In this document: piece by piece, positions 3,980 through 46,148 of the stretch
How positions within the stretch are numbered: position 1 is the first letter of the stretch
How the letters are laid out: each line of letters opens with the position of its first letter
Assembly: GCA_963844325.1 (NCBI GenBank)
Contig: CAWJNV010000002.1
Location: 3,897,824-3,961,823, forward strand
Direction: 5' to 3'
Origin: an uncultured Sphingobacteriales bacterium
GTDB taxonomy: Bacteria; Bacteroidota; Bacteroidia; Cytophagales; 172606-1
Length of the DNA: 64,000 nt
The notes under the pieces: model-generated
What the model was told of the DNA's origin: nothing
What the model saw: only the letters and a program-made list of their open reading frames with translations
The model's database searches: none
Translations under genes and position numbers: made by a program

Positions 3980-3980
3980 T

Positions 3981-4062
3981 CAATGATCAGTAATCAGTAA
4001 TCTACGTACTGCCTACTGCCGATTGTTCACTGATTACTGTTTACTGATTTACTGTTCACTGA
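3981..4062. repeat. Inverted repeat of 8-bp words (cagtaatc / gattactg) between convergent genes
   Basis: The left arm is caatgatcagtaatcagtaatc. The right arm is tgattactgtttactgatttactgttcactga, the reverse complement built from 8-mer words. Confidence 0.7.
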
Positions 4063-4065
4063 CCC

Positions 4066-5412
4066 TTACACCTTCGGAAACTTCCACGGGTCGCGGTACT
4101 GCGGCCGGGTCATGGCGGTGGCTTCTTTGTCGTTGAGGAAGGAACCTGAAGCGGCGTCCCAGGTGACCTTGCGGCCGGTGCGCAGGGCAATGTTGCCCAG
4201 GTGCGACACCACGGCGACTTTCCGGGCGGTTTCCACGTCGCACACGGGCTTGTTGCGGCTTTTGATGCACGACACGAAGTTTTTCACGTGCAGGGCCAGG
4301 TCTTTGCCGCCGCCCCGCTGCTCGGGCACCGCCGGGATGAGGTACTGGCCGTTGTCCGATTCGGGGAAGAGCCGCCATTTGTCGCGGTCTACCACCAGCG
4401 TGCCCTGCGTGCCCACGAAGGCCACGCCGCAGTAGTTGTTTCCGTAAAGGCCCGCCGACACCCCCATGCCGTGTTCCCAGGTGATCACGTAATTGCCGTA
4501 GTCGTAGAGGGCCATCTGCGTGTCGGGCGTCTCCATGCCGCTGTCGGGGAAGGCCAGCTTGCCGCCCGTCGCCTGCACGGTTTTGGGCATCCCGGCCTTC
4601 ATGCCGTAGAGGGCAAAGTCGATCAGGTGCACGCCCCAGTCGGTCATGATGCCGCCGCCGTAGTCCCAGTAGTACCGCCAGGTGCCGTGGAAGCGGTTGG
4701 GGTTGAAGGCCCGTTTGGGGGCCGGGCCGAGCCACAGGTCGTAGTCCACGCCGGCCGGGGGCGCCCCGTCGGCTGCCGGCGGGGTAGCCTTGCGGCTGTT
4801 GTAGTAGAGCCAGTTGCGCACCATGCTGATCTTGCCGAGCTTGCCCGAATGCACGTATTCAATGGCCGACTGCCAGTGGGGGCCGCTGCGCTGCCACTGG
4901 CCCACCTGTACCACCCGGTTGTACTTCTGGGCGGCCTGCACCATGGCGTTGCACTCTTCGATGGAACTGGCCATCGGCTTTTCCACGTACACGTCCTTGC
5001 CGGCCTGGCAGGCGTACACGGTCATCAGGCAGTGCCAGTGGTCGGGCGTGCCGATGATGACGGCGTCAATGTCCTTGCTGTCGAGCAGCTTGCGGAAGTC
5101 GGTGTAGAGGACCGGCTTTTTGCCCGTCATCTTTTCGAGTTCGGCGGCCCGGCTTTCGAGCACCGACGGGTCGATGTCGCACAGGGCCACGCATTCCACT
5201 TCGGGCAGGGCGACGTGTTCGCGCAGGTTGGCCCAGCCCATGTTCTTGCAGCCGATGAGGCCCACGCGGATCTTGTCGGCGGCCGACACGGCGGACCGGG
5301 CCGAAGCCGTGGCTGGTAAGGAAAAGGCGCCCAGCCCTACGCCGGCCACCAGGCGGGAGGTATCCCCCATAAAATCTCTTCTTGAATATCGGCCCATGTG
5401 GTTGGTTGACAA
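4066..5412 (-). CDS. Gfo/Idh/MocA-family oxidoreductase with Tat signal
   Basis: 448-aa ORF: MSTNHMGRYSRRDFMG..(twin-arginine)...KIRVGLIGCKNMGWANL. This is an NAD-binding Rossmann start typical of Gfo/Idh/MocA. Confidence 0.8.
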   Translation of the reverse strand: MSTNHMGRYSRRDFMGDTSRLVAGVGLGAFSLPATASARSAVSAADKIRVGLIGCKNMGWANLREHVALPEVECVALCDIDPSVLESRAAELEKMTGKKPVLYTDFRKLLDSKDIDAVIIGTPDHWHCLMTVYACQAGKDVYVEKPMASSIEECNAMVQAAQKYNRVVQVGQWQRSGPHWQSAIEYVHSGKLGKISMVRNWLYYNSRKATPPAADGAPPAGVDYDLWLGPAPKRAFNPNRFHGTWRYYWDYGGGIMTDWGVHLIDFALYGMKAGMPKTVQATGGKLAFPDSGMETPDTQMALYDYGNYVITWEHGMGVSAGLYGNNYCGVAFVGTQGTLVVDRDKWRLFPESDNGQYLIPAVPEQRGGGKDLALHVKNFVSCIKSRNKPVCDVETARKVAVVSHLGNIALRTGRKVTWDAASGSFLNDKEATAMTRPQYRDPWKFPKV

Positions 5413-8574: not shown

Positions 8575-9730
8575 CGGGGGCCCCGACGCCCCTTCCCCCA
8601 AGCCCAAGCACGCCGCCCTGGCCCGGCCCGCCGGGGGGGAGTTCGGCCGCTTCGAACTGGCGGTCCTGGGTACGCCCTGCGACCGGATCAAACGGCTGGC
8701 CGCGGCCCTGATGGGGCACCTCCCGGCGCAACTGCGCGTGGCCTACGTGGACGCTGACCACAAGGGGGAGGAGGGGCCCGGCAACCCGTTCCTGCAGGCC
8801 GGCGCCACGCTGCACTACAACGACAAGATTGCCGCCAAACGCTTCGACTACCGCGGCGACCTCAACCCGTACCAGCTCAAGCCGTTTTTCGCCGGCCAGG
8901 ACCTGGTGCTGGTGAACGGCAACCACTTCGCGGCCCGCAGCCAGGTGGCGGTGGTGGACCCGGCCAAACCGCTCGAAAAGAAGCTCGACAAACTGACCGA
9001 CGTGCGGCTGGTGCTTCTGGCCGAAGGCGTTGCGGAGGTGCCGGCCTACCTGGCGGCCCACCTGCAACAGGCCGGTGAACTGCCCGTGCTGCGGTTGGAC
9101 GATACCGAAGGGATTGCCCGGCACATCCTCGCGCTTTGGCAGGCGCAGCTGCCCCCGTTGCACGGCCTCGTGCTGGCCGGCGGGCTGAGCACCCGGATGC
9201 AGCGGGACAAAGGTTTGCTCCACTACCACGGCCAGGCGCAGCGGGAATACGCCGCGGGCCTGCTGGCCCGGTACTGCCGCGAGGTGTACCTATCGTGCCG
9301 CCCCGACCAGGCCGCCGAGCCGGGAACCCGGTTCCCGCTCCTGCCCGACACGTTTACGGGCCTGGGGCCGCTCGGGGGCATCCTGTCGGCGCTGCGCCAC
9401 CAACCCGACGCCGCCTGGCTGGTGGTGGCCTGCGACTTGCCCCTGCTCGACGACGAGACGCTGCGCTTCCTGGTGACGCACCGCGACCCGTCCCGGGTAG
9501 CCACCGCCTTCCTCGATCCGGAAGGGAAATTTCCCGAACCCCTGGTAACGATCTACGAGCCCCGCAGCTACCCCGTGCTGTTGCAAATGCTGGGCCTGGG
9601 CTATTCCTGCCCCCGCAAAACCCTCATCAACCACGACGTAGCCCTCCTCCGCGCCCCCAATCCCCGCTCCCTCACCAACGTGAACGAACCGGGAGAGTAT
9701 GAGAAAATAGTCAGGGAGTTGGAAGGTTAG
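8552..9730 (+). CDS. mobA: Molybdenum cofactor guanylyltransferase MobA fused to an N-terminal MobB-like domain with degenerate P-loop
   Basis: The C-terminal half has GLVLAGGLSTRMQRDKGLL (the MobA nucleotidyltransferase G-loop). The N-terminal ~190 aa resembles MobB, but the Walker A is replaced by LGTPCDRIKRL. Confidence 0.65.
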   Translation: MTTASNRNGGPDAPSPKPKHAALARPAGGEFGRFELAVLGTPCDRIKRLAAALMGHLPAQLRVAYVDADHKGEEGPGNPFLQAGATLHYNDKIAAKRFDYRGDLNPYQLKPFFAGQDLVLVNGNHFAARSQVAVVDPAKPLEKKLDKLTDVRLVLLAEGVAEVPAYLAAHLQQAGELPVLRLDDTEGIARHILALWQAQLPPLHGLVLAGGLSTRMQRDKGLLHYHGQAQREYAAGLLARYCREVYLSCRPDQAAEPGTRFPLLPDTFTGLGPLGGILSALRHQPDAAWLVVACDLPLLDDETLRFLVTHRDPSRVATAFLDPEGKFPEPLVTIYEPRSYPVLLQMLGLGYSCPRKTLINHDVALLRAPNPRSLTNVNEPGEYEKIVRELEG

Positions 9731-9835
9731 AAGGCTGAATGGCTATATGGTTAAATGGCTATATGGCCATATGATTTTTCCTTTGAGAATCATTCCTCCC
9801 GCAGGCAACCATATAACCATATAACCATACAATCC
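9731..9835. repeat. 8-bp-word palindrome (CCATNNNN / NNNNATGG family) between convergent genes
   Basis: ggctgaatggctatatggttaaatggctatatgg ... caaccatataaccatataaccatacaatcc. Confidence 0.7.
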
Positions 9836-9836
9836 T

Positions 9837-10247
9837 TCAAGGATGCGCGGCGATCCAGGTCTCGCCGTTTTCGTAGACTTCCTTTTTCCAGATGGGCACC
9901 ACCTGCTTGATGGTGTCAATGATGTACTGGCAGGCCTCGAACGATTCGCGGCGGTGGGGCGTGGATACGGCAATGACCACGGCCGTTTCCCCGATTTGCA
10001 GGACGCCCTTGCGGTGCACCACCGCTACTTTTTCGACGGGCCACCGGCGACGGGCTTCCGCGGCCACTTCCTCCATCTTTTTAAGGGCCATCTTGTCGTA
10101 GGCTTCGTATTCGAGGCGCACCACCGTCCGGCGGGCGGCGTGGTTGCGCACCGTGCCGATGAACACGTTTACGGCCCCGGCCCGTTCCGACTGGGCGGCG
10201 GCAATGGCGGCGTCTACGTCAATGGGCTGGTCGGTAATGGCAATCAT
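9837..10247 (-). CDS. moaE: Molybdopterin synthase catalytic subunit MoaE
   Basis: 136 aa: ...VFIGTVRNHA...VRLEYEAY..MA...VHRKGVL.IGE..V. This is the MoaE signature. Confidence 0.85.
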   Translation of the reverse strand: MIAITDQPIDVDAAIAAAQSERAGAVNVFIGTVRNHAARRTVVRLEYEAYDKMALKKMEEVAAEARRRWPVEKVAVVHRKGVLQIGETAVVIAVSTPHRRESFEACQYIIDTIKQVVPIWKKEVYENGETWIAAHP

Positions 10248-15316: not shown

Positions 15317-15320
15317 AAAA

Positions 15321-15368
15321 ATAATTACGAATTACGAATGACGAATGACGAATGACGAATGACGAATT
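15321..15368. repeat. Direct tandem array of 8-bp word (gaatgacg x4) between moeB start and modC end
   Basis: ataattacgaattacgaatgacgaatgacgaatgacgaatgacgaatt. Confidence 0.6.
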
Positions 15369-19066: not shown

Positions 19067-19903
19067 ATGAACCAAAAGACACGTCGTAGTTTTTTGAAGC
19101 GTACCGTCGGCTCGGCGGCGGCGCTGGCGGGAACGGCCGTGGGAACGACCATTGAGGCAACCGCCGGGACTTCGGCAGGGAAGGCGCCGGTGCGGCTGCG
19201 GTTTGCGGTGGCTTCCGACGGACACTACGGACAGCCGGACACCGATTACGCCGGCTTTTACGGCAACATCGTCGTCTGGCTCAACCAGGAGAACGAACTG
19301 AACGGACTCGACTTCTGCGTGTTCAACGGCGACATCATCCACGACGGGCCCGAATTTCTGCCGCAGGCCAAGGCGGCCCTGGACGGGCTGAAAGTGCCGT
19401 ACTACGTCACCCGCGGCAACCACGACCGGGTATCGGCCGAAACCTGGCAGCAGACCTGGGGCTACCCGCCCGACCACAGCTTCGCCCGGGGCGACTACGC
19501 CTTCCTGCTGGGCAACACTTCCAACGAAAAAGGGGAATACCTGTGCGCCGACGTACGCTGGCTGAAGGAGACGCTCGAAAAGTACCGCCGGAAAACCCAC
19601 GTGTTCGTGTTCCTGCACATCACCCAGCGCAAGTGGACCGGCGCCGGCACCGAATGCCCCGAGGTGATGCAAACCCTGGCGGCCTACCCCAACGTGGCGG
19701 CCGTCTTCCACGGCCACGACCACGACGAACACGGCATCAAGACGGCCGACGGCAAGTCATACGTGTTCGACGGACACTTCGGCGGCAACTGGGGCGTGCC
19801 CTACAAAGGCTACCGCATCGTGGAAGTACCCGCCACCGGCAAGGTCAAAACCTACCAGTACAACCCGGAGGTGAATCCCATCGTCAATCTGAGCCAATTG
19901 TAA
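19067..19903 (+). CDS. Tat-secreted metallophosphoesterase (calcineurin-like)
   Basis: MNQKTRRSFLK (Tat signal); ASDGHYG, NGDIIHDG, TRGNHD and FHGHDHDEHG are the metallophosphatase motifs. Confidence 0.8.
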   Translation: MNQKTRRSFLKRTVGSAAALAGTAVGTTIEATAGTSAGKAPVRLRFAVASDGHYGQPDTDYAGFYGNIVVWLNQENELNGLDFCVFNGDIIHDGPEFLPQAKAALDGLKVPYYVTRGNHDRVSAETWQQTWGYPPDHSFARGDYAFLLGNTSNEKGEYLCADVRWLKETLEKYRRKTHVFVFLHITQRKWTGAGTECPEVMQTLAAYPNVAAVFHGHDHDEHGIKTADGKSYVFDGHFGGNWGVPYKGYRIVEVPATGKVKTYQYNPEVNPIVNLSQL

Positions 19904-20124
19904 TGGTTGAATGGCTGCATGGCTGCATGGCTATATGGCTATATGGCTATATGGTTGTTGATCGGGAAGGAGTCGTGCGCCAGCCCAACCATACAGCCAT
20001 TCAACCATACAGCCATATAACCATGCAGCCATATAACCATACAGCCATATAACCATACAGCCATATAACCATACAGCCATATAACCATACAGCCATATAA
20101 CCATACAGCCATATAACCATACAA
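19904..20124. repeat. Large 8-bp-word palindrome (CCATNNNN family) with unique core, between convergent genes
   Basis: Left arm ggttgaatggctgcatggctgcatggctatatgg...; core ttgttgatcgggaaggagtcgtgcgccagcccaacc. The right arm has about 17 units of ccatacag/ccatataa. The arm generates spurious ORFs MIVWLYGCMV.... Confidence 0.8.
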
Positions 20125-20502
20125 TCATCTCCCGTGTTTTTTCTCGAAGTACGCGTAGGCTTCGTTGAGCTTCTGGGTGACGGCTTCGGCGAACTGCTTC
20201 TTTTGCGGCTCGTTGTGGAACCGGTCGGGGTGGTATTTCTTCATCATCGTTTTGTAGGCCCGCTTAATCTCTTCGAATGACGCATTGGCGGGGAGTTCGA
20301 GGGCGGCGTAGTAGCCCGCTTCGGGACCGGCGGGTGGAGGTGGGGTTGCCGGCGGGGGATTGGTCGGGCCCGACCTGGGTTGCCAATCGGCGTAATTTTG
20401 CGAACTTGTATCGAAGGCATCTGGCCCCTGCGGCGTGGGCAGGTCCGATGACAGTAAACTGGCCCGCACCAGGCGGCCGAAGCGGCGGAAGAGGGAAGAC
20501 AT
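20125..20502 (-). CDS. J-domain (DnaJ-like) protein
   Basis: C-terminal YYAALELPANASFEEIKRAYKTMMKKYHPDR is a J-domain with the HPD motif. The N-terminal region is proline-rich. Confidence 0.8.
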   Translation of the reverse strand: MSSLFRRFGRLVRASLLSSDLPTPQGPDAFDTSSQNYADWQPRSGPTNPPPATPPPPAGPEAGYYAALELPANASFEEIKRAYKTMMKKYHPDRFHNEPQKKQFAEAVTQKLNEAYAYFEKKHGR

Positions 20503-21238: not shown

Positions 21239-21325
21239 GGATCAGGATTCTCAGAATTAGAGGATGAACAGGATCAGATACCCACGTGGTGTTGTCGAGC
21301 AGTGATCCGGTAATGCCAGTCCCGC

Positions 21326-21410
21326 CACAAAGGCACGAAGACACCAGGGAACACGAAGGTTTGCCGGCCGCAGCCGCCTTTGTGTTCCCTGGTGTCTTCG
21401 TGTTTTTGTG
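21326..21410. terminator. Bidirectional Rho-independent terminator between pspA and the convergent dehydrogenase gene
   Basis: cacaaaggcacgaagacaccagggaacacgaagg / loop / cctttgtgttccctggtgtcttcgtg, followed by tttttg. The stem is about 26 bp with one mismatch. Confidence 0.65.
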
Positions 21411-21419
21411 ACGTATTCT

Positions 21420-23585: not shown

Positions 23586-24139
23586 CCTGGGTAGGTGCCC
23601 GGCACGGGTTCAGCGGCGTTACCGCCCTTTCCGGTCAATAAGGAAAAGCGGCCCTGACGGGAAGTACGAAAACACAGTTTGGCAAAAGGAGCTAACGTTG
23701 CCGTTAAGCACGGCCCTTATCACAAAAAGATGTTGAGCAGCAAGATCGTAGCCAGGAGGTATACCGCAATGACGGTGCGGAAGAGAGGTAAAGCAGACAT
23801 TCTGGAGGCTAGCCCAAAGCACGCTGGTCAGCCGTAAGCCTACCCGTGAATACGCGTATTCGAAATCAGAGAACCCAACTCAGTACTTACACTTGCTGGA
23901 GCACAAAAAAAACCTGGCTGAATGTGCACAGCTTTTAAGTATAAATCAATACCTACTTTTAGGTATTTTTCTACCCGACGTCTTCCTGATCACCCCGCTG
24001 GCCCGGTACGCCAGGCACCACGGGCTGCCCAGATGAACCCGGTACGCAGCCTGTGCAGCGGACAGCCCCGCGGTGAAGGCCGGCCGGGATTGCGGGGCTT
24101 GCCGGTCCTTTCGTATCTTCGGGCAAAATTTTGCCCCTT

Positions 24140-24763
24140 ATGGGAGACGTACTCCTGAAACACAAACGCCTGCTGCTGCTCCTTGCCCTGTTGCCCGTCC
24201 TGCTGCCCGCCCGTGCGCAGGCCGTTTCCTTCGGCATCAAATTTTCGGGCCTCGCCATTCACCCCCGTCCGCAGCCCGTAGCCGGCCAGTACGGCGGCCG
24301 CCTCGACCGCAAGGGTTACGCAGTGATCACCCAGGGCCTGGCCCTCACCCTCGACGTGAACGTGTACCGTAACGTGGGCCTCAAGTTCATCCAGGCGCTG
24401 GTGTGGCGCGACTGCGCCAACAAGTTCGCCATGCTCAGCCACGTGGGCGTCAACTTCTTCGGGGCGGGCACCACGCTGGGCAAGGGTCGGCACGGGTTCA
24501 GCTGGAGCCTGGGACCGGTACTCTACCGGCGGCAATCGTGGAAGGACGTGCCGGGCTACGTGCCCGACGACAGTTGGCTCAAAGCTCCCGCTGGCAGCCG
24601 GTGGGAAACCAAGCTGGTGCTGCTGGGCGGCCAGCTGGAGTACAACTACTATTTCCGCGAGAATTACGGCCTGTCGCTCAACGTGTTGCCGGGCTACCCC
24701 GACGTGATCAGCGTGTCGGGCGGGGTGGGCAGAAGATCAGGATTAACAAGATTAAAGGATTAA
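24140..24763 (+). CDS. Hypothetical secreted/outer-membrane protein (possible PagL-like acyl hydrolase barrel); 3' end runs into repeat
   Basis: MGDVLLKHKRLLLLLALLPVLLPARAQA is the signal. Beta-strand-like alternation follows. The last 9 codons and the stop lie inside the ggattaa-word palindrome. Confidence 0.4.
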   Translation: MGDVLLKHKRLLLLLALLPVLLPARAQAVSFGIKFSGLAIHPRPQPVAGQYGGRLDRKGYAVITQGLALTLDVNVYRNVGLKFIQALVWRDCANKFAMLSHVGVNFFGAGTTLGKGRHGFSWSLGPVLYRRQSWKDVPGYVPDDSWLKAPAGSRWETKLVLLGGQLEYNYYFRENYGLSLNVLPGYPDVISVSGGVGRRSGLTRLKD

Positions 24764-24968
24764 CCGGATGGATCGGGATTAATCGGATTAAAGGATTAGC
24801 AGGATTACGACGACCGAAATCCTCTTAATCTTTTAATCCGGTTAATCCCAATCCTAATCCGGTTAATCTCAATCCGGTTAATCCCGATCCTAATCCGGTT
24901 AATCTCAATCCTAATCCGGTTAATCCCGATCCATCCGGTTAATCCTTTAATCTTGTTAATCCTGATCC
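24735..24968. repeat. 8-bp-word palindrome (ttaatcnn / nngattaa) spanning the 3' ends of two convergent genes
   Basis: gatcaggattaacaagattaaaggattaa (24736-24765) is the reverse complement of ttaatcctttaatcttgttaatcctgatc (24941-24965). Between them lie about 20 tandem 8-bp units (ccggttaatcccaatcctaat...). Confidence 0.8.
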
Positions 24969-27900
24969 TGGCTTCCTGACCCCTTCGGCAATCACCTCGC
25001 GGATGGCGTTGAGTCCTTCGCCGAGGGTGGAGAGTTGGACCATGAGCTGGCCCATCTGGTCGCCGGAGGCGAGGCCCTTGAACTGCTGGTTTTTGCGGAA
25101 AGTCGTTTTGATCTCCGTCCAGCGGGCTTTTTCCTCCTCGGTCAGCAGGCCGTTCAGTTCCTTGAACTTGAGCAGGTTGGCTTCCGCGCCGGTGGTCAGC
25201 GTCTGGGCCTCGTTTTCGTAGTGCGAAAGGATCAGCGTGCGCAGTTCGGCCTCGTTCATGATGGCTACCACCTTGCCGGCAATCTTGTTCATGTTCCGGT
25301 ACGAACCCTGGAGCTTGAACGGCGGTTCGGTACGGAACTCATCGGCTTGAGCCGCCGAATGGATGTACTGGAGGTTGTTGCGCAGGATGAAGTCGCGCAC
25401 CACGAACAGCTTCTTGAGCACGGCCACGTATTCGTTCAGTTCTTCGGCCGCGTAGCCCGCGTCAAATTCCAGCCCGTCCTGGCTATCCGTTTCGGCCAGT
25501 TTGATCAACGTGTAAATGTCCTTCTGGCTCCTCGTGAGCAGCTTGTTGAGGGCCGGGTTGGCCGTGAGGCAGTTTTCGATGTAGCTGAGTTTAAAAATGC
25601 TTTCCGTGTCGCCGATGATGTCACCCAGGTTGTAGGTGTCGGCCCGGTTGGCCAGCATGTCGGGAATTTTGAACTTTTCGCCGCTCTCCGTGTAGGGGTT
25701 GCCGGCCATCACCACGCACACTTTCTTGCCGCGCAGGTCGTAGGTTTTGGGCTTGCCCTGGTAGACGCCCTCAATGCGGCGCTGTCCGTCGCAGAGGGAA
25801 ATGAATTTTTGCAGGAATTCCGGGTTGCAGTGCTGGATGTCGTCCACGTAGATCATCACGTTGTCGCCCATCTCGAAGGCCAGGTTCAGCTTGTTCATCT
25901 CCTCGCGGGCCCCGGCGTTGGGGGCTTCGGCGGGGTCGAGCGACGTAACCCGGTGCCCGATGGCCGGCCCGTTGATCTTCATGAAGATGAGGCCGAGCCG
26001 GTTGGCGACGTACTCCATGAGGGTGGTTTTGCCGTAGCCCGGCGGCGAAATGAGCAGCAGCATGCCCATCAGGTCGGTGCGTTTTTCGGCGCCCACCACC
26101 CCGATCTGCTTGGCGAGGTTGTCGCCGATGAGGGGCAGGTAGAGCTGGTCAATGAGCTTGTTGCGCACGAACGAGGTCAGCACGCGGGGCGTGAATTCCG
26201 CCAGGCGCATCTCCTTCCGCAGCCCTTCGGCCAGCGATTTTTTGCGTTCGTTGAATTGCAGGTAACGCGGTACGGTTTGCCCGGCAAAGCCGGAAAGCCT
26301 TGCCAGGAATGCGTTGAAGTGCAGCGCGTAGGCGTGGTCCCGGATGACCGGGTGCGTGCCGAGCAGGCCCGTCACGGTGCGGCGGGTAGTGGCCGGCACG
26401 ACGCGGCCGCCGTCGAAGCTGCCCAGAAAAAGCAGGGCGGCCGTTTCGTCCACGTAGTCGGCGGCGTCTTCGATCTTGGTGAGGCACTGGCCCACGAAAG
26501 CCTTTACCCAGTGGCGGGCCATGGCGAACCGTTCGGGCGGGGCGGCTTCCAGTTGGGCCAAAGACTGCCGGAAGGTGGTTTCGTGTCCCTGGGCGTGCAG
26601 CGACTCGTGGAAGGCTTCGTACAGCCCGGCGGCTTCGGCGCTGATGATGAACGCATCGCCGCGGGTCAGTTCTTCGAACAGGTAGTCGGCGGCCGGTCCG
26701 GCCAGCGCCGGGTCGAGCAGTTTGGTTTCGGCCACGAACGTTTCCAGTTCATGCCGGAGGTCGGCCAGCACGCTGCCGAAGTCGCGGGTGTGCGGGAATA
26801 CCTTGCGGATGACGCCGATGCCTTTGATCTGGTGGTGCAGCAGCGCCTTGCGGTCGGCGGGAACGAAGCTCTGCCAGTACAACGCGGCCAGGGCCCGGGC
26901 CGGGGCCGCAAAACGCAAGAGGTCGATCTGCCCGTCCAGGTCGAGCAGGGCTTTGAGGAGCAGGGCGGCGTCGTGGTCGTGCACGCCCTTGACGTAGCCT
27001 TCCACGTAACGCGGGGCCATGTAGGCCTGCACGTACGCCAGCAGGGCATCACCCGAAAGCCCGGCCAGTTGGGCCCTGGAGAGATTGTCGCCGGGAGCCG
27101 GTTTGTGGCCGGCCGGCAGGGACCCGGTGCCCGGCGCGGCGGTGGCCTGCCCGTAGATCTGGTAAGCCAGGTACTCGGCCCGGTACACGTCCCCGTTTTC
27201 AGAAACCAGTTCCTGGCCCCACAGGTCGCGGTTGGTGAGCAGGTCGGGGTGGGAGAGGGGTTCGTAGAAGTTGGTGCCGGTCAGGTGGTAATACATTTCC
27301 CCGTCGCGGGTAAGGATGGTCAGGTCCAGCGGCTGGGTGTTCACCGAAAAGGCGTGCTTGCCCAGGCGGATCACGTTCTGGCCGTCCACGAACAAGTCCT
27401 GGCGGTCTTTAAGCTGCCGCACGGCGTCTTCCCGAATGGTTTTGAGGCGGCTCTCGATCTCGTCGGCCTTCACGGGGTCTTCCATCGCCGTGAGCTGCGC
27501 CACGATGTCGCGCACCTTGCCGATCATCAGGTCGCCGGCGAAGTAGCCGTTGATCTCGTTGACGGTCTTGAAGCCGGCCACGCGGTTGGCGATGCCCTTC
27601 AGGATGCGGTCGGCGGCCGACAGCAGCGACTGGGCCCGTTTGTTGCGGGCGTCGGTGAGGACCTGCTTTTTGGCCTCGAAGGCGCTGTACGTCTCTTCGC
27701 GTTTGCCGGCCAGCAGCGTAATGAACTCGTCGAACTCGGCAAACCTGCCTTCCAGTTCTTCCAGTTGCACCATCAGCTTGGTCAGGTACTCGTCGCACCT
27801 GGCGGGGGTGTCGCACACGTCGAGGTAGTTGATGATGCCCTGGGCAATGAGCTTGAGCTGGGCGGCAAATTCGGCCTGGGCCTCCGTGCCGAGCAGGTCC

Positions 27901-29939
27901 CGCTTCCGCGACTTGAGGGTGGCCTTGGCCCCGTTCAACTGGGCGTAAATACCCGAAATGCCGTCGATGATGGCCGTGGTCTGGGTGGAATCGTCGATCT
28001 TGAGGTTGCTCACGATTTCGATGAGCAGGTCGAGTTCCTTGCCGGTGGCGTCGAGTTCGGCTTCGCGTTTCTGGGCGTCGGCCACCTTGGTGATGCCGGG
28101 GATGCCCGCCTGCCGGGTTTCTACTTGCTGCCGGTAGTACTTGAGCGAATCAGGGTTGAGCAGGAAGGTAACCGTGTCGGCAGAGAGTTGCCGGGTCTGG
28201 GCTTCCAGGACTTCTTCCTGGGCGGCCACGACCGCCAGGTCCACGTACCGCAGGTCTTTGAGCGAAATCACCTCGCCGCGCAGCCCGCGCAGCGACGCCA
28301 GGGCCTGCACGAACTTATCGACCTGGTCAAAGGGCGTTTTTTTGATCCCTCCCACCAGGGCTTTTACCTGCCCCACCACCGCGTCGGTCCGGGCCTGCGT
28401 GTTCTTACGCACCCGCACCACCTTTTCGAATTCCTCGATGGCCGACGAGGCGGCGGTACGAATCTCCGCAATGGCCGCATTGAGGTTAAACGCCTCTTCG
28501 GACTTGAGCCAGTAGTAGGTGTCCTGCATGCCGCCGGTCTTTTTCACCAGGTCGGAGTACAAGGTGGCGTACACGTCCTCGCGGCCCACCAGGTTGATCA
28601 CGTCGTGGGCCTCGGCCATGGCCCGCACAATGTCCTTGTTGCCGATCTTGTAGAGGTAGTTGTCGGTGCTCACGGGCGGCACGTAGTCGGCCCCCACGAA
28701 GGGCGTCTGCCACACCTGGATGAGGTGGTTCTTGCCCGGCTCCTCCTGGGAACGGAAGTAGCAGAGTTCGCCGTTGCCGAACAGCGAAAAGCCGTTGCAC
28801 AGCACCGGGTTCTCCACTTTCTGCTCGATGAGGTTGTAGGGCAGCAGCACGTAGGTGCCCGTTTCGAGGTTGTGGAACACGTACAGCACGTCCTCGCCGT
28901 TGGGCGACGGAATGGTTTTTTCGAACTGCATCCCGCCGGGCAGGTTGTCGAACTGCTTCACGCCGCCGCTCTGGAGGTAGTAGCCGTTGGCAAAGAGCAG
29001 GCCCTGGCCGTCGGGCAGCAGCACGCAGGCTTCGCCGATGGCGTCGATGCGGAGGGCCTTTTTGAGCTTGTCGTTGAAAACGATGTAGCGGTAGTCCTTT
29101 TCCTGGTAGGGCCGCACTTTGAGCAGGATCAGGTTGCCCAGGCCCGCGTAGAAAAATTCGGCGTCGTCGAGCGACTGTTCGGCGTGTTCTACTTTTTCGG
29201 AAAAAATACCCTCGCCGGTGTCGGTGTTGTCTTCGACCTTGATGGTGAGGTCGCCGCCGACGGTTTCGACGAAAATGCGGTCTTCGACGGAAATGTGGGG
29301 GTGCTTGCCCTTGCGCTGGTAGTCGCGCCGGGTGCGTTTCCACTCAAATTCCTGCTGGGGCGGGAACTTGAATTCGTGGTCGCTGCGGTTGTCGAGGTAG
29401 TGCAGCCCGTCGCCCTTGATGAGCCACTTAAAGGTTTTGATGTCGCGCACGCCCTTGCCGATGCGGAACACCATGAACAGGTGCGGCCCGATGATGGCAA
29501 ACTTGGTGAAGGTGGTGAGCTTGTAGTACTTGTAGAGTTCTTCTACCTGCCCCTCAAACTCGGCGTTGCGGATCAGGTCGGGGGGTTGCTGGTGGAAGGA
29601 GTGGTCGCCCTTGTCGAACGAGAACACGCTGAACACGTCCGACAGGTCAATTTCTGACTTGAGTCCCAGGTGCACGTTGTAGCCGAAGATGAACAGGCGG
29701 CCCACCGGGATCATGTCCTGGGGAATGCAGTTGTGTTCGGTAACGATCCGGTTGTTGGCAATCAGTTTGGTTTCGATGGAGCCGAATACCTCCTTGCGGG
29801 CCGCGTTGAGCCCTTTGAGCCGGTCGCGCAGGTCACCGGCGTGGCTTTCGAGCCGCTTGCGGATGATCTCGTATGTGCCGCTTTCGAGCTGGACGGCGGG
29901 GGCAGGGGTGGGCAGGGTGGAGGTATCGGTGGCGGCCAT
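24939..29939 (-). CDS. Giant (1666-aa) multidomain P-loop/AAA+ ATPase: N-terminal beta-rich region, long coiled-coil, C-terminal AAA+ module
   Basis: Walker A LLLISPPGYGKTTLMEY; Walker B NVMIYVDDIQH; sensor-1-like VCVVMAGNPY; Arg-containing KIPDMLANRADTYNL. The central ~600 aa is strongly coiled-coil-like. The likely start is ATG at 29939 (MAATDTSTLP). The ORF-track start at 30017 would extend into REP sequence. Confidence 0.7.
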   Translation of the reverse strand: MAATDTSTLPTPAPAVQLESGTYEIIRKRLESHAGDLRDRLKGLNAARKEVFGSIETKLIANNRIVTEHNCIPQDMIPVGRLFIFGYNVHLGLKSEIDLSDVFSVFSFDKGDHSFHQQPPDLIRNAEFEGQVEELYKYYKLTTFTKFAIIGPHLFMVFRIGKGVRDIKTFKWLIKGDGLHYLDNRSDHEFKFPPQQEFEWKRTRRDYQRKGKHPHISVEDRIFVETVGGDLTIKVEDNTDTGEGIFSEKVEHAEQSLDDAEFFYAGLGNLILLKVRPYQEKDYRYIVFNDKLKKALRIDAIGEACVLLPDGQGLLFANGYYLQSGGVKQFDNLPGGMQFEKTIPSPNGEDVLYVFHNLETGTYVLLPYNLIEQKVENPVLCNGFSLFGNGELCYFRSQEEPGKNHLIQVWQTPFVGADYVPPVSTDNYLYKIGNKDIVRAMAEAHDVINLVGREDVYATLYSDLVKKTGGMQDTYYWLKSEEAFNLNAAIAEIRTAASSAIEEFEKVVRVRKNTQARTDAVVGQVKALVGGIKKTPFDQVDKFVQALASLRGLRGEVISLKDLRYVDLAVVAAQEEVLEAQTRQLSADTVTFLLNPDSLKYYRQQVETRQAGIPGITKVADAQKREAELDATGKELDLLIEIVSNLKIDDSTQTTAIIDGISGIYAQLNGAKATLKSRKRDLLGTEAQAEFAAQLKLIAQGIINYLDVCDTPARCDEYLTKLMVQLEELEGRFAEFDEFITLLAGKREETYSAFEAKKQVLTDARNKRAQSLLSAADRILKGIANRVAGFKTVNEINGYFAGDLMIGKVRDIVAQLTAMEDPVKADEIESRLKTIREDAVRQLKDRQDLFVDGQNVIRLGKHAFSVNTQPLDLTILTRDGEMYYHLTGTNFYEPLSHPDLLTNRDLWGQELVSENGDVYRAEYLAYQIYGQATAAPGTGSLPAGHKPAPGDNLSRAQLAGLSGDALLAYVQAYMAPRYVEGYVKGVHDHDAALLLKALLDLDGQIDLLRFAAPARALAALYWQSFVPADRKALLHHQIKGIGVIRKVFPHTRDFGSVLADLRHELETFVAETKLLDPALAGPAADYLFEELTRGDAFIISAEAAGLYEAFHESLHAQGHETTFRQSLAQLEAAPPERFAMARHWVKAFVGQCLTKIEDAADYVDETAALLFLGSFDGGRVVPATTRRTVTGLLGTHPVIRDHAYALHFNAFLARLSGFAGQTVPRYLQFNERKKSLAEGLRKEMRLAEFTPRVLTSFVRNKLIDQLYLPLIGDNLAKQIGVVGAEKRTDLMGMLLLISPPGYGKTTLMEYVANRLGLIFMKINGPAIGHRVTSLDPAEAPNAGAREEMNKLNLAFEMGDNVMIYVDDIQHCNPEFLQKFISLCDGQRRIEGVYQGKPKTYDLRGKKVCVVMAGNPYTESGEKFKIPDMLANRADTYNLGDIIGDTESIFKLSYIENCLTANPALNKLLTRSQKDIYTLIKLAETDSQDGLEFDAGYAAEELNEYVAVLKKLFVVRDFILRNNLQYIHSAAQADEFRTEPPFKLQGSYRNMNKIAGKVVAIMNEAELRTLILSHYENEAQTLTTGAEANLLKFKELNGLLTEEEKARWTEIKTTFRKNQQFKGLASGDQMGQLMVQLSTLGEGLNAIREVIAEGVRKPGSGLTRLKD

Positions 29940-29954
29940 TGGAATTACTGGTTG

Positions 29955-30060
29955 ATATTTGGGATAGGGTTGAAACCCTATCCTATGGATATTGGGCGCA
30001 GAAGCTTGTATCTTCAACCATCTCGTTGGTAGGATAGGGTTTCAACACTATCCTACTGAT
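29955..30060. repeat. REP-like palindromic units (ggatagggtt-aaaccctatcc) downstream of RAYT gene
   Basis: gggatagggttgaaaccctatcctatgg and ggtaggatagggtttcaacactatcctactg are separated by ggatattgggcgcagaagcttg. Confidence 0.75.
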
Positions 30061-30075
30061 CGGAGACGGTGGGGG

Positions 30076-30516
30076 CTACGGTTCAATGCCAAGGGGAATA
30101 ATGGATGTCCTCAGCGATTCGAGTTCGGCTTCGAAGCCTACCGTTTTGTGGTGCGTCTCCTGGTTCTTGATGTAATTCCGCACGCGTTGTACGTTGGATG
30201 GGCTTACTGAAAAAGCGGCGTAACCATCCTGCCACTCGAATGGCCCCTCCATCAAGCCTTGCCGGTTCAGCCAGTGGGACGAAGCACCTTTGATGTTTTT
30301 GGCAATCTGGCTGATTGAAAGACTGGGCGGCACCGAAAACAGGCAGTGTACGTGATCCTCCACGCCGTTGATGAAATCCAGCTGATACCCCTTCTGCGCC
30401 GCGATGATCCTGATCTGTTTATACAAGGGAATGCGAATTGACTTGTGCAAGATGGGCTCCCGGTTCTTGGTTGCCCAGATCAGGTGAACCCAGAGTGCAG
30501 TAAAAGTTTGTGGCAT
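30076..30516 (-). CDS. IS200/IS605-like Y1 (HUH) transposase, REP-associated tyrosine transposase (RAYT)
   Basis: MPQTFTALWVHLIWATKNREPIL...EDHVHCLFSVPP (HuH motif)...conserved Tyr region (QDGYAAFSV). It is about 147 aa and flanked on both sides by inverted REP clusters. Confidence 0.8.
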   Translation of the reverse strand: MPQTFTALWVHLIWATKNREPILHKSIRIPLYKQIRIIAAQKGYQLDFINGVEDHVHCLFSVPPSLSISQIAKNIKGASSHWLNRQGLMEGPFEWQDGYAAFSVSPSNVQRVRNYIKNQETHHKTVGFEAELESLRTSIIPLGIEP

Positions 30517-30609
30517 TTGCAGGAATAGAAAAGAGTTTGGAACAAGGTTTTGACCCTGTTTCATTCATTAAAGCGAACGTTGAAAAGAAGGAGTCGAATG
30601 TGCTGTGAT

Positions 30610-30880
30610 TGAGTAGGATAGGGTTCGGGGAATAGGAATAGGGTTTGGATATGGGATAGGGTTAAAACCCTATCCTATGGATATTGGGGAGGAAGCTTGC
30701 TAGGTTGGTCATAGCTCAGGTAGGATAGCAGGATAGGGTTTAAACCCTATCCTGCCAATGGGCAAATTGAACCCGCGAACCCAATATCCATAGGATAGGG
30801 TTTTAACCCTATCCCATATCCAAACCCTATCCAAAAAAAACATCCCGCCAACGCTACTCGCCCCGAACCCTATTCCCCAA
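30610..30880. repeat. REP/BIME-like cluster (ggatagggtt-aaaccctatcc units) upstream of RAYT gene
   Basis: At least four units: gggatagggttaaaaccctatcctatgg, caggatagggtttaaaccctatcctg, ataggatagggttttaaccctatcc and others. The same spacer motif ggatattggg..gaagcttg occurs as in the downstream cluster. Confidence 0.8.
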
Positions 30881-30892
30881 ATCCCCCCAGCC

Positions 30893-33109
30893 CTACAACA
30901 CCGACGTCGCCTTCCGTTCCGAAATTCCGCTCTTCTCGGCCGTATCCAGCAATTCGGCCAGCACGCCGCGGAGGCCGTCGTCGTGGGTCATCGTGATCAT
31001 TTTCACGATCAGGGCCGAGATCGTCAGGTTCTTGATGTCCTCCGATTTGAGGTTGAACTGGCCGACGAACTTCTTGAGGTTGTCGCCCAGGCTCACGTCC
31101 TTGCCGTTGGCGTCCTTGCCGTTGCCGTTGCCGAGCAGGGCCGTCTTCACGCCCTTGATCACTTCGCTATTGTTGACGAAGCTGTCCACCGACTTGCCCT
31201 TGGTGATGGCACCCATGATGTTTTCGTAGAACATCGTTTCGCCGCCCACGATGCTGATGTTGGAAGCCTTCAGCGCCTCGCTGATCACGCTGGCCTGGGC
31301 GTTGGCAATGTCCTTCTGAATGTTGATCTGGGCCAGGGCAATGTCGGTTTCCTGCTGCACGCGCAGCTTGAACTCCTCGTGCTCCTTGCCCACCCCGTCG
31401 AGCTTTTTCATGGCGTTGGCTTTGGCTTCGATGCCCAGGGCGTCGGCCAGGCCCTTCTTCTCGCGGACGTTGGCTTCGGCCAGGCCTTCTTTTTCGAGGG
31501 CTTCGGCTTTCGATTGCGTTACCTTGGCTTCGGCCAGGCCCTTCTTCTCCAGCACGCCGGCCTCCACCAGTCCTTTCTTTTCCATGACCCCGGCTTCCAC
31601 AAGGCCCTGCTTTTCGTCCGCTTCAATTTCGGCCTGCCGCTTCACTTTGATGCCGGTGGCTTCGGCAATGGCCCGCTTTTCGATGATGACCGCGTCCACC
31701 AGGCCCTGCTTTTCGTTGGCGTCGGCCTTGGCTTCCAGCACCCGTACTTCGGCCAGCCCCTTGGCGGCTTCTTCCTTTACCCGGGCGTCGGCCAGGAGCT
31801 TCTTGGCTTCGGCCGTCTTTTCGGCGGCCTGCCGGTCGGCGTTGGCCTGGATGATGGATTGTTCGGCGCGTAGTTCGGCGGACCGCTTGTCGGCTTCGGC
31901 CGACTTGATCTGCTGCACGAGGGCTTCTTCGGCGACTTGCTCGGCGTGCTTGATGGCCACCGACTTTTCGCGTTCGGCCGTGGCAAAGGCCCGGGCGTCT
32001 TTGATGAGTTCTTCTTCCACCACCACGGCCTTTTCCACCACTACGCGTTCGCGGATCACTTCCTGGATGTTCTTGCGTTCTTCTTCGAGGGCTTTTTCTT
32101 TTTCAATGCGGGCCAGTTCCACGATGCGTTCCCGTTCGTTGGCTTCGAGCATCTGTTCGCGTTTCACCCGTTCGTTTTCCACGGCCTCGGTTTTCTCCTT
32201 GCTCTTCTGGGCCACCACGATCTGGCGCAGCTTGTTCTGCTCGGCCACCTGGAGTTCTTCTTCCGTCTGGATGCGGGCCCGTTGCGATTTAAGCCGTTCT
32301 TCCTGGGTAACTTTCTCGGTTTCGGCTTCTTCGCGGGCTTTGATGGAGGCAATTTCCCGCTTCTGCTTTTCTTCCTTTTCGGCCAGCTGCTTGTTGAGTT
32401 CGAGGATGGCTTCGCGGGCCTCCACGTTCTGCTTGGTGATCACTTTTTCCTCCTCGCGGCGGATCAGGTTGGCCTTGATCTTCTGCTGGGCGGTGAGTTC
32501 GGTGATCTTCTTGATGCCTTCCGAGTCGAGGATGTTGTCGGCGTTGAGGAAGGTGATGGGCGTCTGTTCGAGGTAGTCGATGGCGCAGTCGTCGAGCACG
32601 TAGCCGTTGAGGTCGCGGCCGATGGCTTCGAGGATTTCGTTCTTGAACTTCTCGCGGGAGTCGTAGAGTTCCACGAAGTCGAACCGTTTGCCCACGGTTT
32701 TGAGGGCTTCGGAGAACTTGGCTTCGAAGAGTTGCACCATCTGGCCGGGGTCGGAGGCCCGGGCGCAGCCGATGGACTGGGCTACTTTCTCCACGTCTTC
32801 CTTGGTTTTGTTGACCCGCACGAAGAACGCCACCTTGATGTCGGCCCGCATGTTGTCCTTGCAGATGAGGCCTTCCTTGCCCACGCGGTTGATCTCAATG
32901 CTCTTGAGGGAGGTCTCCATGATTTCGAGCTTGTGCAGCACCGGAAACACGAACATGCCGTTGAAGCTCACGGTCAGGTCGCCGAAGCCGGTACGCACCA
33001 GGGCGGCACCCTGCTGTACTTTCTTGTAACAGTTGAAAATCAGGGCAATGAAGCCGAACAGGAACACGGCCAGGATGACCGTAACCGCAATGGTAAGATT
33101 TGCAAGCAT
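30893..33109 (-). CDS. Flotillin / SPFH (band 7) domain protein, YqiK-like, with long coiled-coil and EA-repeat region
   Basis: 738 aa. It has an N-terminal TM helix, then an SPFH domain (ALVRTGFGDLTVSFNGMFVFPVLHKLEIM...) and extended E/A/K-rich coiled-coil with flotillin-type repeats. Confidence 0.8.
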   Translation of the reverse strand: MLANLTIAVTVILAVFLFGFIALIFNCYKKVQQGAALVRTGFGDLTVSFNGMFVFPVLHKLEIMETSLKSIEINRVGKEGLICKDNMRADIKVAFFVRVNKTKEDVEKVAQSIGCARASDPGQMVQLFEAKFSEALKTVGKRFDFVELYDSREKFKNEILEAIGRDLNGYVLDDCAIDYLEQTPITFLNADNILDSEGIKKITELTAQQKIKANLIRREEEKVITKQNVEAREAILELNKQLAEKEEKQKREIASIKAREEAETEKVTQEERLKSQRARIQTEEELQVAEQNKLRQIVVAQKSKEKTEAVENERVKREQMLEANERERIVELARIEKEKALEEERKNIQEVIRERVVVEKAVVVEEELIKDARAFATAEREKSVAIKHAEQVAEEALVQQIKSAEADKRSAELRAEQSIIQANADRQAAEKTAEAKKLLADARVKEEAAKGLAEVRVLEAKADANEKQGLVDAVIIEKRAIAEATGIKVKRQAEIEADEKQGLVEAGVMEKKGLVEAGVLEKKGLAEAKVTQSKAEALEKEGLAEANVREKKGLADALGIEAKANAMKKLDGVGKEHEEFKLRVQQETDIALAQINIQKDIANAQASVISEALKASNISIVGGETMFYENIMGAITKGKSVDSFVNNSEVIKGVKTALLGNGNGKDANGKDVSLGDNLKKFVGQFNLKSEDIKNLTISALIVKMITMTHDDGLRGVLAELLDTAEKSGISERKATSVL

Positions 33110-33111
33110 AG

Positions 33112-33278
33112 CGTATGGGAAAATGGAATTTGATTGCTCGAAGGGAATGGTACACGGGATAATGGTGCACTGATTGGTTATGATGATTATGGTTTATTAT
33201 GATCTTTTCTCCGAACCCTTTTTTAAATCAGTCCCAATCATACTCATCATAATCAATCCGTGTACCATCAAACGGGTA
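33112..33278. repeat. 8-bp-word palindrome (gattatga family) inside the yqiJ-flotillin operon
   Basis: ggtacacgggataatggtgcactgattggttatgatgattatggtttattatgatc ... cataatcaatccgtgtaccatcaaacgggtac. A second copy of this family is at 51565-51698. Confidence 0.7.
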
Positions 33279-34478: not shown

Positions 34479-34612
34479 TGGGTTGTATGGTTAAAGGGCT
34501 ATATGGTTAAGTGTTGAATGGCTGTATGGTTGATTGTTGGGGCTGGTGCAGGCGTAAGCAAAACCATTCAGCCATGTGACCATACAGCCATTCAACAATC
34601 AACCATACACCT
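34479..34612. repeat. 8-bp-word palindrome (CCATNNNN family) with related core
   Basis: ggttgtatggttaaagggctatatggttaagtgttgaatggctgtatgg...ggggctggtgcaggcg...ccattcagccatgtgaccatacagccattcaacaatcaaccataca. Confidence 0.7.
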
Positions 34613-34613
34613 C

Positions 34614-36029
34614 CTAACTCCTTAACTCCAGAAGTGCTACGTTTTCGACATGGTACGTGTGCGGGAACATGTCCACGGGTTGTACGTCTTTTACGGCGTA
34701 CCGGGCGTCGAGGATGGCCAGGTCGCGGGCCTGCGTGGCCGGGTTGCAGCTCACGTACACAATGCGTTGCGGGGCGGCCCTGAGCAGCATCCGGGTCACG
34801 GCCTCGTCCATGCCGGCGCGGGGCGGGTCGGTAATCACCACGTCGGGGCGGCCGTGGGTGTCGAGGAAGTCGTCGGTGAGCAGGTCCTTGATGTCGCCGG
34901 CGAAAAACTGCGCGTTGGCAATGCCGTTGATCTGGGCGTTCACCCTGGCGTCGGCAATGGCCATGGGCACGTATTCGAGGCCGACCACCTTTTGCGCCTG
35001 CCGGGCCACGAAGTTGGCAATGGTACCGGTACCCGTGTAGAGGTCGTACACGGTTTCGTGGCCCTGCAAGCCGGCGAAGGAACGGGCAATCTGGTAGAGT
35101 TCGTAGGCCTGCGCGGCGTTGGGCTGGTAAAACGACTTGGGTCCCACCCGGAACTCGAGGTCCTCCATCCGTTCGGTGATGTAGGGCTGGCCGTGGAAGG
35201 GTTTCACCTCCAGGTCCTGGAAGGTGTCGTTGCCCTTGTTGTTGACCACGTACTGGAGCGAAGTGATTTCCGGGAACCGGTCGCGCAGGTGCACCAGCAG
35301 CCCTTCGAGCCATTCCCACCGGTCGTAGGCCACCTGCACGATCACCATCACTTCGCCCGTAAGGGTGGTGCGCACCACCAGGTTGCGCACGAAGCCTTCC
35401 CAGGTGACCGGGTCGTAGAACGGCAGCTTATGGGCCCGGGCGTAGTCGCGGGCGGCCAGCCGGATGGCGTTGGAAGGGTCGGGTTGCAGGTAGCAGTGCT
35501 CCACGTCCACGATCTTGTCGAAGCGGCGCGGCACGTGGAAGCCCAGGGCCGACCGTTCCAGGTCTTCGCGGACGGCCATTTCGGCCGGGGTGAGCCAGCG
35601 GTTTGACGAAAACGTGAATTCGAGCTTGTTGCGGTAGTAGGTGGTGCGGGCCGAGGCCCGGATGGGCCGGATGGGCGGCAGGGCCACCTTGGCAATGCGG
35701 GTGAGGCTGTCCACCACCTGCTGGTGCTTGTAGCCGAGCTGGGCCTCGTAGGTGATGTGCTGCCACTTGCAGCCGCCGCACACGCCGAAGTGCTGGCAGA
35801 ACGGCTCGGTCCGCACGTCGGAGTACTGGTGGTAGGCCACCGGCACGCCCTCGGCGAAGTTCTTCTTCTTGCGGGTCAGCCGCACGTCCACCACGTCGCC
35901 GGGGGCCGCCGTGTCGCCGTCCAGGAACACGACCATGTCTTCGTGACGGGCCAGGCATTTCCCCTCGGCCGCCACGGCGCTGACGGTGAGTTTCTCGAGT
36001 ACGGGTAAGGCTTTCTTGTTTTTTCTCAT
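34614..36029 (-). CDS. rlmD: 23S rRNA (uracil-C5)-methyltransferase RlmD/RumA (TRAM + Fe-S + SAM MTase)
   Basis: Start MRKNKKALP.  The Cys cluster (CQHFGVCGGCKWQH), the SAM motif (VYDLYTGTGTIANFVA) and the catalytic DPPRAG...C nucleophile region are all present. Confidence 0.8.
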   Translation of the reverse strand: MRKNKKALPVLEKLTVSAVAAEGKCLARHEDMVVFLDGDTAAPGDVVDVRLTRKKKNFAEGVPVAYHQYSDVRTEPFCQHFGVCGGCKWQHITYEAQLGYKHQQVVDSLTRIAKVALPPIRPIRASARTTYYRNKLEFTFSSNRWLTPAEMAVREDLERSALGFHVPRRFDKIVDVEHCYLQPDPSNAIRLAARDYARAHKLPFYDPVTWEGFVRNLVVRTTLTGEVMVIVQVAYDRWEWLEGLLVHLRDRFPEITSLQYVVNNKGNDTFQDLEVKPFHGQPYITERMEDLEFRVGPKSFYQPNAAQAYELYQIARSFAGLQGHETVYDLYTGTGTIANFVARQAQKVVGLEYVPMAIADARVNAQINGIANAQFFAGDIKDLLTDDFLDTHGRPDVVITDPPRAGMDEAVTRMLLRAAPQRIVYVSCNPATQARDLAILDARYAVKDVQPVDMFPHTYHVENVALLELRS

Positions 36030-39994: not shown

Positions 39995-39995
39995 T

Positions 39996-42893: not shown

Positions 42894-42907
42894 TAGAAAG
42901 ACGCCAC

Positions 42908-46140: not shown

Positions 46141-46148
46141 AGTTTCGT

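Follow-up and report, generated by a model that had tools for sequence, protein, structure and literature searches.

The STRR heptamers of filamentous cyanobacteria are short words set head-to-tail in intergenic DNA, which can pair into hairpins, as between hupS and hupL, and for which roles in transcript stability or termination have been proposed (PMC2670836). In Xanthomonas, GGGAATC heptamers form 70-75 inverted pairs per genome, mostly intergenic (Rehm et al. 2015, PMC4692102). These pairs are always "convergent", with the G-rich array first, slippage has been proposed for them, and the single or inverted-pair type is kept between related species, with length and sequence varying (PMC4692102). 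Long simple sequence repeats (SSRs), with units of 5-11 nt, are scattered sporadically over the phylogeny, Bacteroidetes included (Mrazek et al. 2007, summarised in PMC4679880). For these and for TAACTGA repeats (MacGregor 2015, PMC4679880), heptamers are given as the commonest unit, indels between strains come in unit steps, and close relatives often show shorter, repeat-free spacers. The STRR/long-SSR class is already known but poorly understood, and inverted heptamer pairs have already been reported in Xanthomonas.

Here we describe arrays resembling these in a stretch of 64,000 nucleotides (the window) from an uncultured Sphingobacteriales bacterium. As in STRRs, short words follow one another head-to-tail outside genes, a single genome holds several word families, and hairpins can form between genes by the pairing of arrays. 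The present arrays differ in that their commonest unit is an octamer, ATGGYTNN, in that seven of the listed loci use octamers, and in that mirrored pairs are the rule, whereas in STRRs they are occasional; the host is a member of the Cytophagales (protein neighbours in Fibrella, Larkinella and Dyadobacter) and not a heterocystous cyanobacterium. With the Xanthomonas pairs, 14 loci of the window share opposite-strand arrays of the same word, close together and generally with the G-rich array first, but Xanthomonas has one dominant, G-quadruplex-prone word, while the words here offer no G-tracts for G-quadruplexes, fall into at least seven families with periods of 7, 8 and 9, and build much longer stems. 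With long SSRs they share a head-to-tail unit of 5-11 nt repeated beyond chance, a non-coding location, as fits units whose length is not a multiple of three, and whole-unit copy changes between relatives; the long-SSR and TAACTGA reports deal with direct repeats, many of them lying shortly before a start codon, and mirrored pairs and polarity are not their subject. A limited keyword search of the literature returned no report of the octamer family ATGGYTNN or its spread across Bacteroidota and beyond, of whole spacers built from words to this degree, of word replacement at conserved sites, or of the generality of the polarity described below; searched with the literal array sequences, the literature yielded only an unrelated plant paper.

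Results

Anatomy of the locus at 19904

The locus fills the spacer between two convergent genes, and consists of the following parts, here given with a neighbouring array.

19903-19958: left (5') arm, seven ATGGYTNN words, G-rich and C-poor, lag-8 z of 9.4
19959-19985: central loop, 27 nt
19986-20128: right (3') arm, about 17 NNARCCAT words; in TRF, a 16-nt double word repeated 8.6 times with 96% identity
19025-19053, plus strand: four direct CGAACAA copies, period 7, lying 13 nt upstream of the start codon of the metallophosphoesterase gene; absent from the earlier list

The left arm begins within the TAA stop codon of a metallophosphoesterase gene (19067-19903; Pfam Metallophos), and the right arm runs into the TGA stop codon (20125-20127, minus strand) of a convergent DnaJ-domain gene. 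The right arm is 2.5 times as long as the left, which together with its 96% uniformity points to a recent one-sided expansion. The loop with its adjacent bases (19958-19991, 34 nt) is identical to the reverse complement of 51010-51043, within the locus at 50956; BLAST of the spacers aligns the two loci over 71 nt at 94% identity on opposite strands, a match that includes this 34-nt non-repeat loop.

Word families and periods across the window

A lag-identity scan of the window finds 13 strongly periodic segments, where block shuffles lead to an expectation of 0.05; hence, the arrays are real and beyond chance. Concerning their regularity, the sequence-only reading had proposed a strict 8-bp period at 18 or more loci. 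Tandem arrays are indeed present at most of these sites, with lag z values of 4-16 at 13 of the 18 and arrays listed by TRF as well, but per-arm lag statistics give a period of 8 at seven only (9731, 19904, 34479, 42760, 50956, 54555 and 57722). The period is 7 at five others (3981, 10899, 15321, 48108 and 62027) and about 9 at one (24735), and no short period appears at the remaining five (1699, 29955, 30610, 33112 and 51565), two of which, 29955 and 30610, are ordinary REPs beside a RAYT gene. An array followed by its reverse complement, as had been stated, is found at 19904-20124 and most of the listed sites, far above chance, and the loci at 10899 and 15321 are direct arrays only, also as stated. 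The arrays and hairpins are:

3978-4066: period-7 palindrome, AATCAGT / ACTGATT, between convergent genes; fold z -4.2/-4.6
9722-9838: period-8 ATGGYTNN palindrome between convergent MobA-like and MoaE genes, spanning stop codon to stop codon
10897-10930, plus strand: AATGACY x 4.4, period 7, direct only, within a co-directional spacer of 46 bp; no fold
15319-15368, plus strand: direct-only period-7 array, AATKACG x 6.4
24733-24970: GGATTAAN palindrome, period 8-9; outer 56-nt arms 98% complementary; both flanking ORFs end within the arms; fold z -16/-23
33140-33275: hairpin without short period, not built of tandem words; forms a two-copy family with 51560-51705 (46 nt at 89%)
34479-34632: period-8 ATGGYTNN palindrome in a co-directional spacer
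42753-42894: period-8 ATGGYTNN palindrome; 55-nt arms 87% complementary; fold z -14
48106-48220: period-7 GAGTATT palindrome between convergent genes
50952-51082: period-8 ATGGYTNN palindrome; loop shared with 19904
51560-51705: the other member of the family of 33140-33275, likewise a hairpin without short period; lies in a divergent spacer and is conserved in the relative L122
54544-54750: composite palindrome, outer GGTTAGG-type and inner ATGGTTGT words, flanking a conserved centre
57710-57933: period-8 GGAGTTNG palindrome, 73-nt arms
60500-60630: period-7 AGGAGCG/AGAAGCG palindrome at a co-directional junction; fold z -10.5; absent from the earlier list
62012-62138: period-7 GGTCATT / AATGACC palindrome

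The idea that each locus uses a different 8-mer does not hold, since ATGGYTNN is common to six loci and AATGACN/GGTCATT to three. The locus at 57722 and the outer layers of 54555 and 34479 contain words of the GGAGTT or GGTTAGG type. GGTCATT is a rotation of the Calothrix STRR word TTGGTCA. None of the array words ATGGYTNN, GGTCATT, GAGTATT and GGATTAA contains a run of three G. Stems reach about 90 pairs and arm lengths range from 24 to 152 nt, and loops and word order differ from locus to locus; apart from 19904 and 50956 with their common loop, the other four ATGGYTNN loci have unrelated loops.

The RAYT gene and other repeat families

Like REP, BIME and REPIN elements, the arrays are abundant intergenic palindromes, often at gene 3' ends, and a RAYT gene with REPs of its own lies in the same window.

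29945-30060: REP palindromes of the conventional type, GGATAGGGTTnAAACCCTATCC, flanking the RAYT gene on one side; neither a 7-bp nor an 8-bp period
30076-30564, minus strand: RAYT-type Y1 transposase gene (PF01797, E 1e-29), a system separate from the arrays
30612-30840: REP cluster flanking the RAYT gene on its opposite side; 8-bp period absent; contains a 51-nt perfect inverted doublet

These REPs had been thought to share the 8-bp period, with RAYT-mediated generation of the arrays as one option. Neither proposal is supported: the lag-8 z values of the two REP regions are -1.0 and 1.0, all 13 copies of the REP 8-mer core ATAGGGTT/AACCCTAT in the window lie within 29964-30873, and an all-against-all BLAST of the window spacers gives no match between REP and array spacers. 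REPs come in nearly identical copies of a 20-40-nt unit that carries a conserved tag. The arrays lack such a tag and any fixed unit larger than the word, and they show neither similarity to the local REPs nor association with the RAYT gene. A RAYT link was rejected on these grounds, and the arrays are independent of the RAYT/REP system.

Other repeats and genes of the window deserve mention on their own account. The perfect 51-nt inverted doublet (30638-30688 / 30780-30830) has a REPIN-like look, and GTAG precedes some of the REP units. The RAYT/REP island is flanked, within 24939-33109, by a 1692-aa DUF3686/AAA+ gene and a 738-aa gene without Pfam match, a pair conserved in the relatives L120 and L121. 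A dispersed inverted-repeat family, ATACTAAGGTGCAAGACCTCACCCCCGGCCCCTCTCCCAAGGAGAGGGGAGA, which is not built of tandem words, lies at 45788-45826, 46083-46142 and 63759-63904, its last member having 52-nt arms that are 100% complementary (63761-63904). Next to it, 63324-63734 holds a large inverted repeat with 106-nt arms, 90% complementary (63445-63716), and 17-18-nt tandem repeats at 63324-63375 and 63682-63734.

Folding and gene context

All 14 mirrored loci fold on both strands, with minimum free energies of -22 to -131 kcal/mol and z-scores of -4 to -23 against 25 mononucleotide shuffles, far better than the shuffles; no fold is obtained for the direct arrays at 10899 and 15321. The two arms of a locus mirror each other down to the order of word variants, as illustrated by the complementarity at 24735 (98%) and 42760 (87%).

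Gene context was taken from a rough map derived from GC3 bias, part of which was checked against Pfam and the annotation of relatives. On this map 16 loci lie at six convergent, nine co-directional and one divergent junction, so that the placement at convergent gene ends or within operons put forward earlier is borne out for 15 of 16, with 51565 as the divergent exception. All arrays lie within spacers, which they often fill entirely, and only their outermost words overlap ORF ends. Examples are ORF 24131-24763, whose last nine codons and stop codon are array words (24735-24763), and ORF 60605-62026, the end of which is likewise formed by array words (60605-60630). The ortholog of ORF 24131-24763 in L120, a relative, instead has its stop codon at the first word.

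Like intrinsic terminators, the arrays form stem-loops directly after stop codons; unlike them, they have no U-tract, their stems are many times longer and A/T-rich, and they also occur upstream of genes. The suggestion that they are bidirectional terminators agrees with the placement at gene ends, but no U-tract follows the array hairpins, and terminator-like matches number 20, 31 and 29 against 24.5, 24.2 and 24.9 in shuffles, with a single array-internal match (9739-9770). The array hairpins do not qualify as canonical intrinsic terminators. A canonical terminator-like hairpin, of 13 pairs with a T-run, does occur at 54619-54648, inside the loop of the 54555 palindrome, and is kept in L122 though the surrounding arms differ, which indicates that the arms are not needed for a terminator role there. 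A terminator role of the array hairpins is plausible. Rfam covariance models at the gathering score gave no match in the whole window.

A further 40-pair hairpin, with CACGAAGA-type words, stands at 21322-21415 downstream of a PA14/TrAA12 gene. It is 86-87% identical in L120 and L121, with two compensatory and three one-sided pair changes, and its polarity is opposite to that of nearly all other loci, the C/A-rich arm coming first.

Orthologous spacers in relatives

Syntenic metagenome contigs of relatives were reached through members of protein clusters. Their genes are 86-95% identical to those of the window at the DNA level in L120, L121 and L122, and about 76-89% in L123. The orthologous spacers are in turn only 25-73% identical, and still fold at -45 to -105 kcal/mol; array density in the relatives is similar, with 1.9-4.3 loci per 10 kb as compared with 3.9 in the window.

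Copy number changes in whole units. At the 15321 site AATKACG is present in two copies in L120, three in L121 and 6.4 in the window; at 24735, L120 has two to three GGATTA words per arm around a non-repeat centre, where the window has arms of 73 and 152 nt; and at 50956, L122 has about 2.5 words and no palindrome, against the long arms of the window. The words themselves are also replaced. In L120 and L121 the 19904 site is a palindrome of 106 bp in which most words, in both arms, read ATGACTNN where the window has ATGGCTNN, and its loop differs from that of the window. At 34479, L122 shows ATGAGTTN words in the same architecture; at 54555 its centre is conserved and its arms differ. In the alignment of 24735 with a relative, 17 pairs are changed on both sides, i.e. 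compensatorily.

Neither orthologous site in the relatives has the 34-nt loop that 19904 and 50956 share. As these sites carry related words without that loop, conversion between arrays is a simpler explanation of the sharing than transposition. Persistence is not universal: in L001 (90% amino-acid identity) the 19904 site is a 192-bp non-repeat spacer, and in L122 the 42760 array is absent, leaving a 24-bp spacer.

Two segments of the window, 39992-42257 and 48122-49869, the latter including a GAF/SpoIIE gene (48207-49520), are absent from the syntenic L122, and their breakpoints coincide with array-bearing spacers. At 57914-60608 the window has two overlapping minus-strand ORFs (258 and 689 aa) where L122 has one of at least 869 aa that matches KTI12/AAA_33/Metallophos/PNKP_ligase; this may be a frameshift or a split gene.

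Distribution and polarity

Four consecutive ATGGYTNN words were found in at least 116 genome stretches of several phyla in a scan with one genome per species, compared with about 0.07 expected by chance, a rough estimate of our own that assumes equal base frequencies. By record title, 76 of 116 matches listed, about two thirds, are Bacteroidota, among them Saprospiraceae, Chitinophagaceae, Prolixibacteraceae, Flavobacteriales, Hymenobacter and Pedobacter; the other carriers listed include Gammaproteobacteria, Patescibacteria, Anaerolineae, Calditrichota, Ignavibacteria and Verrucomicrobiota. The loop of 19904/50956 had no match in a metagenome scan. In a crude ORF-based classification, the approximately 35 palindromes among the matches listed fall into 19 co-directional, seven convergent and eight divergent spacers, which speaks against any role strictly bound to the 3' ends of genes, and the direct arrays have no orientation preference relative to genes (18 "++" versus 21 "--").

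Many matches lie at contig ends, suggesting that the arrays break short-read assemblies. Very long, near-perfect ATGGCTGA / ATGGTTTT arrays, of 16 to more than 30 copies, are seen in Hymenobacter gummosus (L004, 2570-2695) and in a Saprospiraceae MAG (L087). In a Chitinophagaceae MAG (L086, ~860-958), a second palindrome made of a different octamer, GAATATTG / CAATATTC, stands by a ATGGTTAA array, so that several word families coexist in other genomes too.

Paired arrays have a fixed order. Among the matches listed, the ATGG arm lies 5' of the CCAT arm in 36 cases (24 strict and 12 relaxed) and never the reverse. Other word families that TRF reports at the same listed loci have a G-rich 5' arm in 25 cases and a C-rich one in eight, or 18 to three where the G-C difference is at least five, and in the window the 5' arm is G-rich and C-poor in 13 of the 14 palindromic loci. 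The G/T-rich strand thus runs 5' to 3' from each flank toward the centre. Since a palindrome reads identically on both strands, this polarity is not an effect of the replication or transcription strand.

Three candidate explanations of the polarity were tried, none of them convincing. Self-folding of the G/T-rich arm through G.T wobbles, priming a fold-back copy, is speculative, as none of seven arms differs from shuffles; ensemble energies favour the G-rich strand in all seven, by just 0.8-3.3 kcal/mol. Stop codons, which the polarity might place after genes, are only modestly enriched on the inward-read strand (117 versus 89). Start codons differ strongly between that strand and its opposite (172 versus 32). 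Lastly, direct arrays abut a gene at the 5' end of the G-rich strand in 27 cases versus 23, which is not significant.

Discussion

Origin of the arrays

The most probable reading, which we hold with some confidence, is that these loci are intergenic short-tandem-repeat hairpins of the STRR or long simple-sequence-repeat kind that change by slippage in place, their arms remaining complementary. Words of 7 to 9 bases would multiply and shrink in place through replication slippage, while the arms on both sides of the spacer would be held complementary, with hairpin-templated (intrastrand) template switching as the most likely means and selection for a stem as a possible aid. The word would thus become homogenised within an array and between the two arms, and arrays with a common word at different loci would occasionally copy sequence into each other. 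The non-coding DNA from a stop codon to the next gene boundary would in this way turn into one long stem-loop, whose sequence turns over much faster than the flanking genes and whose hairpin character persists. At the RNA level its likeliest role would be that of a 3'-end or intercistronic stem-loop blocking exonucleases or read-through. The anatomy, the excess over chance, the unit-step copy differences, the replacement of words with complementarity kept and the copying between loci are direct observations; the mechanism, drawn from comparison of sequences, is reasonably supported. The sequence-only reading had offered slippage plus template switching as one option, and this fits the ortholog comparisons, in which copy number differs in unit steps and both arms change word together. 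Some results sit less easily with it: slippage alone accounts neither for the polarity nor for the recurrence of the ATGGYT core in several phyla, selection for a hairpin would yield the same pattern as template switching between arms, and the array-free sites in L001 and L122 run against the model.

According to a second reading, the hairpins are selected functional RNA elements, either bidirectional terminators or 3'-end and intercistronic stabilisers like REP/BIME, and the tandem-word texture is incidental. We regard this as possible, yet clearly less probable than slippage in place. In the window, the genes beside almost all loci converge or run in the same direction, and a locus often spans the exact interval between two stop codons; hairpin potential is kept at orthologous spacers in spite of their low identity, and L001, devoid of the array at the 19904 site, has another hairpin beside the DnaJ stop codon; stabilisation or termination of transcripts has moreover been proposed for the STRR hairpins of cyanobacteria (PMC2670836). 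It is weakened by the missing U-tracts, by terminator-like matches no more frequent than in shuffles, by the canonical hairpin in the 54555 loop, which makes the arms unneeded, by the gain and loss of arrays between close relatives, and by the occurrence elsewhere of all orientation classes, eight of 35 palindromes among the matches listed being divergent in the crude ORF-based classification. Movement of the loci as mobile-element copies, whether as REP/REPIN units moved by RAYT or as MITEs with the arrays as terminal inverted repeats, is unlikely. It would explain the loop that 19904 and 50956 share in opposite orientations, the GGTTGTATGG...CCATACAACC-like words in which five of the six ATGGYTNN loci end, and the presence of 42760 in the window and its absence in L122; a RAYT gene also lies in the window. 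The REPs of that gene are nevertheless unrelated, non-periodic and local, and lengths, loops and word orders differ between the loci. Orthologous sites in relatives already hold related proto-arrays, so that copying between arrays explains the shared loop, which itself went unmatched in the metagenome scan. A MITE is improbable, as no target-site duplication was seen, no direct repeats flanking the arms on inspection and the inverted symmetry of 42760 continuing into its flanks; of the six ATGGYTNN interiors in the window, one pair shares the 71-nt match and the other four are unrelated. The earlier views that the loci are intergenic hairpins of tandem words, and that they are not copies of one mobile element, are supported.

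A similarly low probability is given to the words being recognition or product sites of a dedicated conserved factor that fixes core and polarity, which could be a sequence-specific DNA- or RNA-binding protein or an activity adding repeats at G/T-rich 3' ends. The breadth of the ATGGYT core, far above the rough chance estimate, the absolute polarity of its pairs among the matches listed, and the same convergent arrangement reported for GGGAATC in Xanthomonas (PMC4692102) speak for such a factor; against it speak the coexistence of several unrelated word families in one genome, the change of words at the same site between close relatives, the direct-only arrays without orientation preference relative to genes, and the fact that no candidate protein emerged. 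Slightly more doubtful still is the stronger form of this idea, that the fixed polarity and the recurrence of ATGGYT across phyla are the signature of a conserved activity writing or reading the words and not a side effect of slippage. Such an activity could, for example, add repeats to G/T-rich 3' ends at breaks or stalled forks, the ends being joined afterwards, or it could lie in a protein that binds the words specifically.

Significance

Any mechanism has to account for the near-absolute polarity, a simple rule that is directly testable. Were the improbable conserved-activity reading true, the spacers would stem from a process of bacterial DNA maintenance that has yet to be described. Spacers of this kind matter for annotation, since they break assemblies and can look like regulatory RNAs or mobile elements, and for the evolution of gene ends, since array words supply the stop codons and last codons of some ORFs. 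The arrays also bear on the question of what STRR-type repeats do. If the pattern of the window is genome-wide, much of the intergenic DNA of this lineage and of many other Bacteroidota would owe its making and remaking to a microsatellite-like process, under which hairpins are kept and sequence is lost.
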